Virus record (IMG/VR): IMGVR_UViG_3300037155_000067
Coordinates: 1-51,280 of that record
Source of the DNA: a virus
Taxonomy: Duplodnaviria > Caudoviricetes
Reading direction: 5' to 3' (one strand)
Length of the DNA: 51,280 bases
A program made the translations under genes and the position numbers. Below are positions 9,185 through 12,580 of the stretch, one piece after another. Numbering within the stretch: the stretch's first letter is position 1; the number at the start of each line of letters is the position of its first letter. The notes under the pieces were generated by a model, which saw only the letters and a list, made by a program, of their open reading frames with translations, made no database searches and was not told the origin of the DNA.

Positions 9185-11017
9185 ATGGCTGATGTATCAG
9201 AGTGGCCTGGAACAGCGGTGCAAGAATCTGATTGGCCCGGCGCCGCTATTCAGGAATCCGATTGGCCAGGTCAAGCCGTAGCGAAGAAACAGCCGGCTGC
9301 ATCTCCGGTTAAATCGGGCGAGTTGCCGAATCTTGCGTTGATGCGCGGCGGGAACGTCACAAGCAAGACCGATCCGACCGCGGCGATTCAACTCGGTAAA
9401 ATCCTAGATGTCGGCAAAGAGACGCTGAACACGGCGCTCCCTGGGTTTTACGAGCAGGCGACGACATCTCCGTTGCCAGCTACGCATTTGCAGCCGACAG
9501 CGACCGATTCGACCGCAACGGCAGCAGGAAAAGCCGCAATGAACACGCTGACTGGCACGATTGAGGCTTTAACGAGTCCCGCAATGTTAGCAACTGTCGC
9601 AGCCGGTGGTGCATTTCCTGAAGTCGGAAAGGTGCTAGGCGCAGGTTTTGGCGTTCAACAAGCCGCTGAAATACCCAGCCAGATCGAGCAGGCCGTCACC
9701 GCACCGACAACTCAGGGAAAGATCGAGGGCGGTCTTGGCGCTGCGCTGTCGTCACTTTTCGCCGTTGGCGGCGCCAAAGTAGCCGGTGGTCTTTCTGAAT
9801 CGTTGAAGCCAATTTTAGGAGAAACCGCAACACCAGAGGAGGTGATCGCCAGTGAAGGGAAAAATGAAGCCCAAAGCCAAGGGCAAGAAAAAGCCAAAGA
9901 TGGGGTACTAACCGAACCGGCACCGAGCGTTCAATCCGCTGCGGAGCCCGTAGCAGGCACGCGCATCTCTGGCCCGGCGCTTGTGGACACCGAGGGCAAC
10001 ATTATCGCACAGGGTAAACTTGGCGAGACGCACGCCGATTTGTTGAAACAAGCGATGGCCGGCGACGATCCAGAAAAGGCTCTGGAAGCGTTTACGAACG
10101 ATGCGCAACACGTTTTTGTCGATGATCAGGGGAATAAACTCGACCGCACACAGGCTGCCGAACTGGGGGTGAAAAGTGGGCAAGTTCCCGAGGGCACTAC
10201 GAAGGTCGAAAGCCAGATGCTCAAACCAGATGAAACTATCGCCAGCTCAGAGGGAACAGGAGGAGAAGCACCAGCGAGTACAACAGGCGCTACTGTGGGT
10301 GCGCAAGATGAACCGGCTGCACAGCCTACAGAGCCGGGCACTGAGCCGAAACCCGAAGGTGAAACAACTGGTGAGGAATCGACAACGGGCATTGCTCAGC
10401 GGGTCCACGAACAGCGCGCACCAGGCGAAATAGTTCCAGGTGAAGGCAGTTCTCCGTCCGATCTTGTGCAGCGCGGCCGAGAGTTACTGCAAGGCGGCGC
10501 AGATCCCGAGAAGATTATTGCTGGTGTCAACGAAGGCAAAGCTGTCACTGGCGATGAGATGGCCGTCCTACGCGCGAAGGTCGAGGAATTCAGTAAAGTC
10601 ACCGATCAGACCGGGGAAGCGTTGCGCAAGAATCCGAACGACCCAGTTTTGAAACAGGCTGCCGCCGATGCGATCAAGGCCGAGACTGATTTCCGTAAAC
10701 GAATCAAGCCAGCGGCAACGGAAGCGAGCGAGGTGTTTCGGGCACTCCAGGGAGAAACCGAAGTGGAAACTGGAACTTTCGTTGGATTGCGCAGAGCATT
10801 TGTAGAACGCACTGGTCGCGACGTAACCCCCGGCGAATCTGTGACGCTTGAAAAGACTGCCGAAAAAGTTCAGAAAACCAATGCCGAAGTTGAAAAAACG
10901 AAGGCTGATTTTAGTGAGGTCGTGAAGCGCGAAACCAAGGGTCGCAAAGTGAAAACGGCGGAAGAACTACGCGCCGCGTTCGCGGAGAAGTTCAAAAAAA
11001 TGCTACCTTGCGACTAA
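9185..11017 (+). CDS. Large ejection/internal virion protein, N-terminal half
   Basis: N-terminal (E/D)WPG repeat x3, Gly/Ala hydrophobic helices, acidic linkers; its only Cys is penultimate. Confidence 0.65.
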   Translation: MADVSEWPGTAVQESDWPGAAIQESDWPGQAVAKKQPAASPVKSGELPNLALMRGGNVTSKTDPTAAIQLGKILDVGKETLNTALPGFYEQATTSPLPATHLQPTATDSTATAAGKAAMNTLTGTIEALTSPAMLATVAAGGAFPEVGKVLGAGFGVQQAAEIPSQIEQAVTAPTTQGKIEGGLGAALSSLFAVGGAKVAGGLSESLKPILGETATPEEVIASEGKNEAQSQGQEKAKDGVLTEPAPSVQSAAEPVAGTRISGPALVDTEGNIIAQGKLGETHADLLKQAMAGDDPEKALEAFTNDAQHVFVDDQGNKLDRTQAAELGVKSGQVPEGTTKVESQMLKPDETIASSEGTGGEAPASTTGATVGAQDEPAAQPTEPGTEPKPEGETTGEESTTGIAQRVHEQRAPGEIVPGEGSSPSDLVQRGRELLQGGADPEKIIAGVNEGKAVTGDEMAVLRAKVEEFSKVTDQTGEALRKNPNDPVLKQAAADAIKAETDFRKRIKPAATEASEVFRALQGETEVETGTFVGLRRAFVERTGRDVTPGESVTLEKTAEKVQKTNAEVEKTKADFSEVVKRETKGRKVKTAEELRAAFAEKFKKMLPCD

Positions 11018-11023
11018 ATCATC

Positions 11024-12580
11024 ATGGCCTCTCCCTGCTATCCCAGTCAGTTGCAAGATCCAAAATTCTCGAACGAGGAATCGCGGGATATCTGGAATTA
11101 CGCGCGCGTCACGTACATCGACAAAGGCGTTGAGATTTCCGACACGATTAAAAACGTAGCGACCGATCTTGGATTGAAACCGGAGTGGGTCGCAAAAGCG
11201 TTCACCGAACCGAAAGCAATTCGCAGCATCACGAACGAGATGTACAAAAAGATGTCCGATCGGCGCAGGGTCGTGCAAGACGCCAAGGACATCGTGAACG
11301 GTCTGGACAAATCTCCGATTCGTAAAGTTTTCGACACCATCTGGAGAACTCCGTTTGCCATTGCGGTTGCTGGTCATGGCACTGTTGGAATGCAGACTCA
11401 CGCCGGAGCCGCCCTGTTTCGTCCGTCAACTTGGAACACGTATTTTACGAACTTCGGTCGGCAATACAAATATTCGTATAACAAAGCCGCGCACGAAGCC
11501 GCCATGCAGGAATTGGTGCGCGATCCGAATTTCATCACGGCCAAGCGCGCCGGGCTAGCTAATGATCCGTCGGCCACATACACGGATTACGGAGTTTACG
11601 CAAAATGGATTCCAAAGGTGCTTGGCAAGGCTATCGGTCAGCGCGGATTCGACGTTCTAAAAAAGTATCGTCAGGACGCTTTCAATAACGAATGGAGCAA
11701 GGTTTCTGAGTCGATCAAATCCGATCCGCAAGCCACGAAAGATTTGGCGAAGAACCTGGCGGAGATGATCAATCATTCAAGCGGTGTGGCCGATATCGGT
11801 CACGGGCCAGTCCCGACTGGAATAAGCACGCTGACGTTTGCAGCGCGTCTGGAGGCGTCGCGTTGGGCGCGCATCATTGGCGATCCGATCAAAACCGTTG
11901 GAACTTTTACGGATTGGAAGAACTCGAGCGCGGCTGATCGGCATGTCGCTGTTATCAGGCTCCGCCACGCTGCGGAGTTTACCGGATTCTACGTTGCCAC
12001 ATTGATTGCTAATCAGGCCATGTTGTCGGCATCGGGCAGCAAAGATCAGATCAATTTTACCGACCCGTCAAAGAGCGATTGGTTGAGGCATAAGATCGCA
12101 GGACGCACCATCGGACTGGAGGGAAATCTCATGGCCCCAATTCGTCTGTTGGGTCAACTCATTTACAACGCATTCGGGCCGCGGCAACCATATCAGCGAA
12201 TGGAGAGCCGGTTTGAATCCGAGACGAAAACCGTTGGCGGTTATGTGCGTGGCAAACTTTCTCCGGCAGCCGGAATAGCCGTTGATGTCGCTACGCAAAG
12301 CGATTTTATGGGCAACCCGTTGCCGTTCTCGAAAGACAAACCAAAAGCCGGAAAGCATCAGTTGGCCATTGGTGAATATCTCGGTCAACGCGGTCCAATT
12401 CCACTTTCAGGCGCAATTCGAGAAGTCTACGATAATTTCAAAGAGCAGGGCATGGACGCTGCAACGGCAACCAACTTGATTCGAGGCTTGGCCGTGCTTG
12501 GCGCTGAAACGACCGGTGCTAAAGTTGGCATGGAACCGAAACCAAAGTCGAAACGCAACACGTTTTCAATCGTAAAATGA
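11024..12580 (+). CDS. Large ejection protein, C-terminal half (LPD38-like tail)
   Basis: Same frame as 9185, 6 nt after its stop; RGKLSPAAGIAVDVATQSDFMGNP motif; its only Cys is residue 5. Confidence 0.65.
   Translation: MASPCYPSQLQDPKFSNEESRDIWNYARVTYIDKGVEISDTIKNVATDLGLKPEWVAKAFTEPKAIRSITNEMYKKMSDRRRVVQDAKDIVNGLDKSPIRKVFDTIWRTPFAIAVAGHGTVGMQTHAGAALFRPSTWNTYFTNFGRQYKYSYNKAAHEAAMQELVRDPNFITAKRAGLANDPSATYTDYGVYAKWIPKVLGKAIGQRGFDVLKKYRQDAFNNEWSKVSESIKSDPQATKDLAKNLAEMINHSSGVADIGHGPVPTGISTLTFAARLEASRWARIIGDPIKTVGTFTDWKNSSAADRHVAVIRLRHAAEFTGFYVATLIANQAMLSASGSKDQINFTDPSKSDWLRHKIAGRTIGLEGNLMAPIRLLGQLIYNAFGPRQPYQRMESRFESETKTVGGYVRGKLSPAAGIAVDVATQSDFMGNPLPFSKDKPKAGKHQLAIGEYLGQRGPIPLSGAIREVYDNFKEQGMDAATATNLIRGLAVLGAETTGAKVGMEPKPKSKRNTFSIVK

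Follow-up and report, generated by a model that had tools for sequence, protein, structure and literature searches.

Matched terminal cysteines at the breaks of a split giant phage protein suggest that its pieces are joined by a tail-to-head disulfide

When the gene for a very large viral protein is broken in two, how might the resulting pieces be put back together? This question is raised by two adjacent open reading frames (ORFs) in IMG/VR record IMGVR_UViG_3300037155_000067 (Duplodnaviria; Caudoviricetes), a complete virus record of 51,280 bp with direct terminal repeats, all of which was analyzed and is referred to here as the window. Gene A (9185..11017, plus strand, frame 2) encodes a 610-residue protein that ends in KMLPCD, and gene B (11024..12580, plus strand, frame 2) encodes a 518-residue protein that begins with MASPCY. 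The break between them (11015..11023, plus strand) consists of the TAA stop codon of A (11015-11017) and a 6-nucleotide (nt) spacer, ATCATC (11018-11023). The only cysteine of A is its penultimate residue, Cys609 (TGC codon, 11009..11011, plus strand), and the only cysteine of B is Cys5 (TGC codon, 11036..11038, plus strand). By our own arithmetic, if the single Cys of each protein could lie anywhere along it with equal likelihood, the probability that both would fall this close to the break is (2/610) × (5/518), or ∼3e-5. A prior examination of these letters without database searches (hereafter the sequence-only reading) had proposed that A and B are halves of an ejection protein re-joined by one disulfide between the two Cys residues. 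Its coordinates, Cys counts, Cys positions, and in-frame TAA-ATC-ATC were exact, and its judgment that the pair was unlikely to be there by chance agrees with the calculation above.

An exhaustive phmmer search with B yielded 944 representatives at E ≤ 0.001, of which 636 reached E ≤ 1e-30. With few exceptions among the best 150 representatives, B aligned to the last ∼500 residues of proteins of 900 to 3100 amino acids (aa), a 3-fold range of length within the family. Natural fusions of A and B were present (P0005, 1085 aa; P0011, 1066 aa), and both lacked Cys. A conserved domain at the C terminus of A (residues 400-610; 10382..11014, plus strand) gave tblastn matches in 67 loci and directly precedes the B domain in the fused relatives. 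On these comparisons A and B together make up one giant protein that is a single chain in most of its relatives, and the proposal that the two ORFs are halves of one protein is upheld by the existence of P0005 and P0011.

The split is retained in related viruses in other forms. The nearest relative, a 51,056-bp viral contig (L001) whose B homolog is 72% identical, has the same two genes, separated there by TGA plus TT and thus placed in different frames. Each homolog in that contig has a single Cys: in the A homolog (679 aa) it is the final residue (EMLPC), and in the B homolog (520 aa) it is residue 6 (MPSGPCYP). Across nine split loci the frame offset was 0, 1, or 2, the distance from the nearest upstream ORF end to the downstream start was -8 to +7 nt (measured from the intervening gene, not from the upstream fragment, in L013, L017, and L019), and the stops, spacers, and codons around the Cys varied. 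Read-through, sequencing error, and recoding were rejected because the relatives also have the split, but with different frames, stops, and spacers; with the split kept in another frame in L001, the TAA of the window is neither a sequencing error nor a codon that is read through. An RNA-level signal around the Cys codons was also rejected, as no common nucleotide motif was found there. A 51-kb contig from the probable source sample was identical over the junction at a depth of 23.6; this was the only run spanning the junction, and the contig is not independent evidence. Because the frame offsets of the relatives vary, the frame shared by A and B is incidental. Two details of the sequence-only reading were therefore too narrow: the shared frame is exact in the window but is not a general feature, and the Pro-Cys motif holds in the window and its clade but is not universal.

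To compare broken with unbroken genes, we fetched loci with an alignment to the B domain (30 viral, 69 metagenomic, and 2 genomic) and removed duplicates. The downstream piece started with M-x(1-5)-C and had no other Cys in 20 of the 20 unique split loci, including two with non-ATG starts (L074, GTG, MPSC; L097, TTG, MAC). The upstream piece had a Cys within its last seven residues, in the form Cys-x(0-6), in all 19 loci with a visible end; the twentieth, L057, runs off its contig so that the upstream end lies outside. These endings were diverse, with C, CP, CL, CPV, CRT, CPR, CPT, CIN, CRR, CIVR, and CPGKTAL as the final residues. The terminal Cys was the only one in 18 of the 19 upstream pieces, and the remaining piece (L088, 160-5997) had three more in a C-x9-C-x3-C cluster (residues 1308, 1318, and 1322) within a Pfam GP88 domain (1e-35). 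Unsplit genes presented the opposite picture: none of the 26 unique loci with a complete start had a Cys near the N terminus, the frames lacked Cys entirely except for one internal residue in L045, and none of the 24 ORFs adjoining unsplit genes upstream ended in Cys. In the sequences compared, a broken gene thus carries a Cys at both new termini and an unbroken gene at neither, and the expectation that split homologs would keep both junction Cys while fused ones would lack them was borne out (20/20 and 19/19 versus 0/26).

Larger sets of homologs gave the same result. Among 15 homologs of the A C-terminal region, the sole Cys was the last residue in 13 and the penultimate residue in 1 (14/15), and C609 was invariant in 23 of 23 sequences of an alignment that extended down to 22% identity. 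B-only proteins, defined as those starting within ∼20 residues of B residue 1, had a Cys at residues 3 to 7 in 29 of 30 cases when the B protein of the window was counted. At a second break, represented by locus L017, the flanks are not homologous to the A C-terminal domain. Here the upstream piece ended in W..F[LIV]..[IL].C-x(0-3) in 75 of 75 homologs (31 to 100% identical, 488 to 1198 aa), 74 of which had no other Cys, and the downstream piece started with M..WCLP in 6 of 6. The junction Cys residues are accordingly conserved in split homologs (14/15, 23/23, 29/30, and 75/75). The outer termini behaved differently from the new ones, with no N-terminal Cys in any first piece and a C-terminal Cys in the last piece of P0206 only (Cys 650 of 652).

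Breaks were located at several positions upstream of B, namely at 0 to 9, 61 to 78, 251 to 258, 398 to 453, 541 to 580, 701, and 1720 residues, and each of those from ∼250 to 1720 residues upstream was followed by M-x(1-5)-C. A FastTree phylogeny of 203 B domains indicated at least 17 changes between the split and fused states, a rough number from a quick tree; the junction-type splits formed three clusters on this tree, and the other splits were scattered. We also observed that the residues after the downstream Cys resemble each other at different breaks, with C-Y-P-S-Q-L in the window (11036-11056) and C-L-P-P-S-Q-V in the L017 type (L017 3791-3812; P0192-P0196, P0201). This shared motif may have arisen by convergence, or the junction may travel along with inserted DNA.

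The paired Cys residues stand out against a family that otherwise has almost none. The best 150 of the 944 representatives contained 30 Cys in 234,130 residues (0.0128%), 123 of the 150 had no Cys, and 15 of the 30 family Cys were situated at residues 3 to 7 of downstream pieces. Cys content ranged from 0 to 4.6% across the other window ORFs of at least 150 aa. Such suppression is a feature of the ejection proteins of Schitoviridae, in which Cys frequencies of 0.00075% and 0.0055% have been reported versus 0.865% in proteomes, and for which the rationale offered is that ejection proteins cross the periplasm with its disulfide-forming enzymes (PMC11445570). The gp50, gp51, and gp52 proteins of N4 have 0 Cys each, and the giant family examined here displays the same feature. 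Taken with the comparison of split and unsplit loci, these counts lead us to infer that the Cys pair was selected because of the break.

We examined the geometry of the junction in fused relatives and by structure prediction. The position of the break corresponds, in 49 fused representatives, to a connector whose length and sequence vary and that spans from the last helix of the A domain to the "IWxYAKxNYI" helix of B. By a crude measure, the distance between these anchors was 7 to 82 residues (median 43), and the corresponding parts of the window proteins sum to 38. Prediction of a complex between A(400-610) and B, with a separate alignment for each, gave an interaction prediction score from aligned errors (ipSAE) of 0.67 (0.69, 0.67, and 0.63 in individual runs), versus 0.01 for the best of three controls. 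In calibration, 58 of 80 solved complexes attained this ipSAE, as did 2 of 110 mismatched pairs; these counts are only a rough guide here, because we supplied the alignments ourselves. The runs had at least 72% of contacts in common, and the predicted local distance difference test (pLDDT) value of the partner was at least 65. In these models, A helices 527-609 pack on B residues 5-95, and both A609 and B5 are among the confident interface residues. No similar complex was found among solved structures, so the docking score does not derive from a known structure; it expresses the confidence of a model and is not a measured quantity. The C-terminal helices of A are thus predicted to dock on the N terminus of B with both Cys residues in the interface.

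On this basis we propose that a redox-reversible, tail-to-head disulfide probably replaces the missing peptide bond between A and B. The two halves would dock first without a covalent bond, the last helices of A on the first helices of B. After docking and packaging, and only outside the reducing cytoplasm, exposure of the virion to an oxidizing medium would allow the two thiols to form the tail-to-head disulfide, and a continuous, thread-like chain would be restored. Because the link would lie at the very ends of the pieces and no other Cys exists, a linear polymer could pass the tail or the envelope, and mispairing would be avoided. Upon arrival in the reducing cytoplasm of the host, the bond would be cleaved and the pieces would separate. 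That the two thiols would bond to each other is suggested by the single thiol per chain, the lack of a conserved co-ligand, and their strict co-occurrence. Our confidence declines along this scheme: it is greatest for the selection of the pair by the break, then for the bonding of the thiols to each other, then for the formation of the bond outside the cell, then for the linearity of the chain, and it is least for cleavage in the cytoplasm. The disulfide proposal of the sequence-only reading is partly supported (a split protein, Cys residues that follow the junction, and a plausible ejected protein); its reliance on the shared frame and on Pro-Cys does not generalize.

The contents of the breaks provide clues as to how the genes came to be split. 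In the window, in L001, and in most junction-type loci the break is empty, with -4 to +7 nt between the pieces. At other loci it is occupied. A free-standing homing endonuclease with HNH and NUMOD3 domains lies in the break of L017 (3238-3786), flanked by an upstream piece that ends in ESIKC and a downstream piece that starts with MGNWCLPP. Ferritin-like ORFs occupy the breaks of L062 (3282-3809; Pfam Ferritin, 1e-17) and L055 (2227-2733; Pfam Ferritin, 2e-14), at break positions that differ; a link between these ORFs and redox chemistry is a tempting possibility. The break of L083 contains an ORF of unknown function, and homologs of an ATP-grasp protein lie between the fragments in L040 (2957-4231) and L057 (1-966). 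The inserted genes suggest that gene insertion is one route to a split. A far more general scheme can be imagined, a "disulfide splice" used throughout a large uncultured phage lineage, in which giant ejected polyproteins would be breakable anywhere by inserted genes (homing endonucleases or morons), each break would gain a matched pair of terminal Cys, and the pieces would be joined outside the cell, threaded as one chain, and released as modules by the cytoplasmic reductases of the host. We consider this extension possible but doubtful. If it were correct, the occurrence of C[YFL]P(P)SQ[VL] at non-homologous breaks would hint that the junction is carried in by the inserting element.

What kind of protein has been split was approached through its fold and through the domains of its relatives. 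An AlphaFold2 model of B, made with a 60-sequence alignment, was all-alpha with a pLDDT of 85.7. Foldseek with this model found no match in the PDB at E ≤ 0.001, a profile search of PDB sequences found none at E ≤ 0.1, and the best VIA-align result (Z of 6.2 over 75 residues) was under the noise level for helical proteins. The model did match the C-terminal parts of predicted viral proteins in BFVD, with E values down to 1e-11. Many of these matches were labeled "large polyvalent protein associated domain-containing," and some were labeled ART, RelA/SpoT, helicase, lysozyme-like, or MuF; a language-model atlas also likened B to clusters with polyvalent labels. When 60 B domains were compared by hmmscan with the named polyvalent-associated domain LPD38 (PF18857), only 1 of 60 gave a hit, at an E of 0.13, which is below the cutoff. 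The giants P0005, P0050, P0102, and P0122 had no Pfam domain, and their only PHROGs were phrog_9880 and phrog_4301, both families of unknown function. An SLT lytic transglycosylase domain (4e-26) was present in the upstream piece of one relative, and the relatives also included a GP88 domain. Precomputed labels on relatives (PF01464, PF06737, PF06414, PF18760, PF00226, and PF02195) include transglycosylase-like, Zeta toxin, ART-PolyVal, DnaJ, and ParB-like domains. Seven columns were invariant in 60 B domains (H118, H126, G254, N344, D352, K357, and P414) and include a GHGTVGMxTHAG motif, which may point to a catalytic or metal site in the B fold.

The Cys suppression, the SLT domain in a relative, the fold matches to the C termini of polyvalent proteins, and tail-fiber genes nearby make the identity of the A/B family as ejected proteins plausible, and the giant protein is probably packaged in the virion and ejected into the host. 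The tail-fiber genes are two genes with collagen repeats (18404-19486 and 40948-43575) that start ∼6 kb downstream of A and B. Together with a weak match to the large terminase (144-1955, minus strand) and weak tail-like matches, they are the only structural markers recognized in the window. A RecT and PDDEXK exonuclease pair is located at 20023-21923, and the majority of the remaining genes had no family match. No tail tube, sheath, or chaperone gene was recognized anywhere in the window, and the "podovirus" label applied in the sequence-only reading is therefore unverified, as no tail-type marker was recognized. Searches of the PDB by phmmer with two other window proteins found nothing, and a search of the genome collection for B-domain loci returned only 2 short contigs of metagenome-assembled genomes.

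The genes that flank A and B were compared with those at other loci. The upstream neighbor (7969..9183, plus strand) encodes a 404-aa protein with 0 Cys that may belong to the same Cys-free module as A and B. No sequence homolog of this protein was found among the fetched loci, and the upstream ORFs of other loci have no detectable homology to it. In 22 of 24 other loci the ORF adjoining the giant gene upstream is nonetheless Cys-free, which suggests a Cys-free operon that resembles the ejection operon of N4-like phages. Downstream, overlapping the stop codon of B, lies a gene for a 422-aa ATP-grasp protein of the GARS/PurD-like kind with 6 Cys (12577..13845, plus strand; atlas features 0.98, structure TM of 0.94 to 0.97), whose other labels are "biotin carboxylase family" and T4_Y16D-like. 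Its homologs also adjoin fused giants (L012, L014, L016, L045, L066, and L069). The gene is thus a conserved neighbor of the giant gene, split or fused, and is not specific to split loci; its candidacy as a split-specific ligase was rejected on this ground. The N terminus of A, as read from the translation, opens with three short tandem repeats (SEWPGTAVQ, ESDWPGAAIQ, and ESDWPGQAV; 9197..9280, plus strand). Two to four short repeats with aromatic, acidic, and Pro residues likewise open the first pieces or the fused giants of L004, L009, L024, L035, L088, and L105, and such N-terminal repeats may be a docking or packaging signal.

Several points weigh against the proposed disulfide, some chemical and some from the sequence record. 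No disulfide would form in the reducing cytoplasm at the time of assembly. Something other than the bond must therefore bring both halves into the particle, and the predicted non-covalent interface could be sufficient by itself. The location in the virion and the ejection are deduced indirectly, and neither A nor B belongs to a Pfam or PHROG family. In tblastn searches with A, B, and P0193, no match was found in 50,697 phage records, and no cultured phage with this family was found. The number of independent splitting events depends on a quick tree, and the C[YFL]P(P)SQ[VL] motif is common to the two best-sampled breaks, whose independence is not fully secure. A protein in three pieces, with Cys at both ends of the middle one, did not occur in the fetched loci; the single candidate (window 6897-7391) was rejected as an unrelated ORF of 164 aa. 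Possible exceptions to the terminal rule include P0165, in which the Cys is kept with 17 residues after it; P0187, a B-only protein of 510 aa with no Cys; P0189, P0020, and P0210, which lack Cys and begin 26 residues into B; and the short, Cys-free records P0033, P0106, P0107, P0191, P0203, and P0205. Similar short records, P0114 and P0007, proved to be truncated calls of fused ORFs, and the relative of P0205 in L105 is a complete fused gene of 1070 aa with 0 Cys. Pattern scans retrieved only a 48% relative for the DNA of P0107 and no match for the DNA of P0033 and P0189.

Could the Cys pair be explained without a disulfide? The two residues might act jointly by bridging a metal ion, at a site perhaps shared among several copies, or by a thioester, a thioether, or an ATP-grasp-aided ligation. 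Their placement in the predicted interface fits such a role, as do the ATP-grasp gene, a conserved neighbor that stands between the fragments in L040 and L057, and the ferritin-like genes between the fragments in L062 and L055. We regard it as unlikely, however, because each chain provides one thiol and no conserved His, Cys, or Asp partner is found near the termini, because the ATP-grasp gene is equally frequent beside fused, Cys-free giants and so is not tied to the break, and because the downstream Cys is not residue 1, so that a shift of the native chemical ligation type would need processing. It is also rather improbable that each Cys works alone, as a tether to another virion component or to its own copy or as protection of a terminus. 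Pairs of A with A and of B with B are chemically possible when each piece has one Cys, but the two Cys always occur together at breaks and are absent from unbroken genes (20/20 and 19/19 versus 0/26), and a need for tethering or capping would apply equally to the outer termini, where only P0206 has a C-terminal Cys, and to the fused proteins. That the residues are functionless scars, either of an intein (Cys1 and the +1 Cys of the C-extein) or of sequence brought by an inserted mobile gene, we consider highly improbable. Inserted genes do occur in some breaks (the HNH and NUMOD3 gene of L017 and those of L062, L055, L083, L040, and L057), and similar C[YFL]P(P)SQ[VL]-like motifs follow the Cys at two non-homologous breaks. 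Scars would not be expected to persist down to ∼30% identity while all other Cys are purged, and the invariance of the residues (23/23 and 75/75) already points to purifying selection on the Cys codons. There is moreover no inserted gene in the window or in most other junction-type loci, and no intein (Hint) domain or Pfam match at a junction with 1 residue after the A Cys and 4 before the B Cys.

A separate alternative concerns the identity of the giant protein, which might instead serve as the tape measure of a long-tailed phage. In that case the argument for a disulfide would stand, since the chain would have to be continuous in the tail tube. The protein is long, helical, and Cys-poor, with hydrophobic segments rich in Gly and Ala, and its relatives include SLT domains. 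A tblastn search of the same 50,697 phage records with P0221 gave matches through the SLT domain only, and SLT-bearing tape measure proteins were among them. The best fold matches, however, are the C termini of phage "large polyvalent" proteins, Zeta-toxin and ART-PolyVal labels are found on relatives, and family members vary 3-fold in length. Tape measure genes lie between tail-chaperone genes (with a frameshift) and distal-tail or hub genes; here an ATP-grasp enzyme follows the gene, not a distal-tail or hub gene, and the upstream neighbor (7969..9183) has no recognized family. A tape measure identity seems to us improbable, and we retain the reading of an ejected protein whose pieces are probably joined by a disulfide.

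How does this arrangement compare with known split genes? The closest in kind are genes-in-pieces such as NrdA-a/NrdA-b of phage Aeh1 and gp39/gp60 of T4, which arose from the insertion of homing endonucleases (Crona et al. 2011, PMC3045599). The Aeh1 pieces reassemble after translation through protein-interaction tails, and the available text of that paper describes no interchain bond at the break (PMC3045599). As with Aeh1 nrdA, the gene studied here is continuous in relatives (P0005, P0011, and 26 unique unsplit loci) and split into adjacent ORFs in the window, and the prediction is that the new termini bring the pieces back together. The L017 locus also has an HNH endonuclease in the break, whereas the window has 6 nt only. 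Unlike Aeh1 nrdA, the breaks are bordered on each side by a matching terminal Cys in a protein that otherwise lacks Cys, implying a covalent and redox-reversible joint, and the pairing is seen again at several break positions throughout a large family. Split inteins also provide for the end-to-end joining of split-gene products, with a Cys exactly at the junction. In contrast to them, there is no Hint domain here, only 0 to 6 residues follow the upstream Cys and 2 to 6 precede the downstream Cys, the peptide bond would not be restored, and a reversible disulfide is proposed as the link. An intein was rejected because no Hint domain was found and there is no room for one.

The proposed principle has a counterpart in the di-chain toxins of the AB type, in which a single interchain disulfide is reduced after entry into the target cell. 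In these toxins, a protease nicks a single gene product to give the two chains, and the bond spans a loop. In both systems a disulfide would hold the parts together during passage of a membrane and its reduction in the cytosol would separate them; the phage system differs in having two genes and a strictly tail-to-head bond, the two share no homology, and we claim no toxin function for A or B.

Among phage proteins, the ejection proteins of Schitoviridae (N4 gp50/51/52 and DEV gp71/72/73) are similarly giant, with near-total suppression of Cys and Cys-free neighboring genes. By hhalign, the B profile gave a probability of 0.12% against the C-terminal 1400 aa of the N4 virion RNA polymerase (vRNAP) and 0.30% against gp51. 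With no detectable homology to the C-terminal region of vRNAP or to gp51, and no RNA polymerase domain found, the likeness is one of kind and not of family. Six Cys in gp72 homologs were treated as likely annotation errors, and the accessible part of that paper describes no split with terminal Cys (PMC11445570).

Iyer et al. 2017 (PMC5512222) described phage-type polyvalent proteins as giant, multi-domain proteins that are predicted to be packaged together with the DNA and to be injected with it, and proposed that peptidase domains cut such proteins into units. The SLT, transglycosylase-like, Zeta-toxin, ART-PolyVal, and ParB-like labels of the relatives, together with the fold matches of B, resemble this class, while A and B of the window are without a Pfam domain. 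The proposed release of units by disulfide reduction, not by a peptidase, would set the present family apart. The words "cysteine," "disulfide," and "split" do not occur in the available text of PMC5512222. More broadly, we found no description of pairs of terminal Cys at split phage genes in the full-text literature, the coverage of which is limited and includes few subscription journals. We infer that the system belongs in kind to the post-translational reassembly of genes-in-pieces and that its new part would be reassembly by a terminal disulfide.

The Cys-pair rule is strict, widespread, and directly testable, and it has a practical use. An isolated terminal Cys in an otherwise Cys-free phage protein identifies that protein as the product of one part of a split gene and helps to locate the other part; so far, this rule for annotation has applied to 20 of 20 downstream and 19 of 19 upstream pieces in the readable split loci and to 75 of 75 at the second break. 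It also suggests a natural design for the redox-cleavable concatenation of proteins. If the proposed disulfide is real, it would provide a third way, beside inteins and non-covalent tails, to keep a split viral gene working, by a mechanism that exploits the difference in redox conditions between the exterior and the interior of the cell. It would provide polyvalent effector proteins with a means of releasing their modules without a protease. It would also mean that an unbroken covalent chain is important for protein ejection, and the threading of very large proteins out of phage particles, a long-standing question, would become testable.

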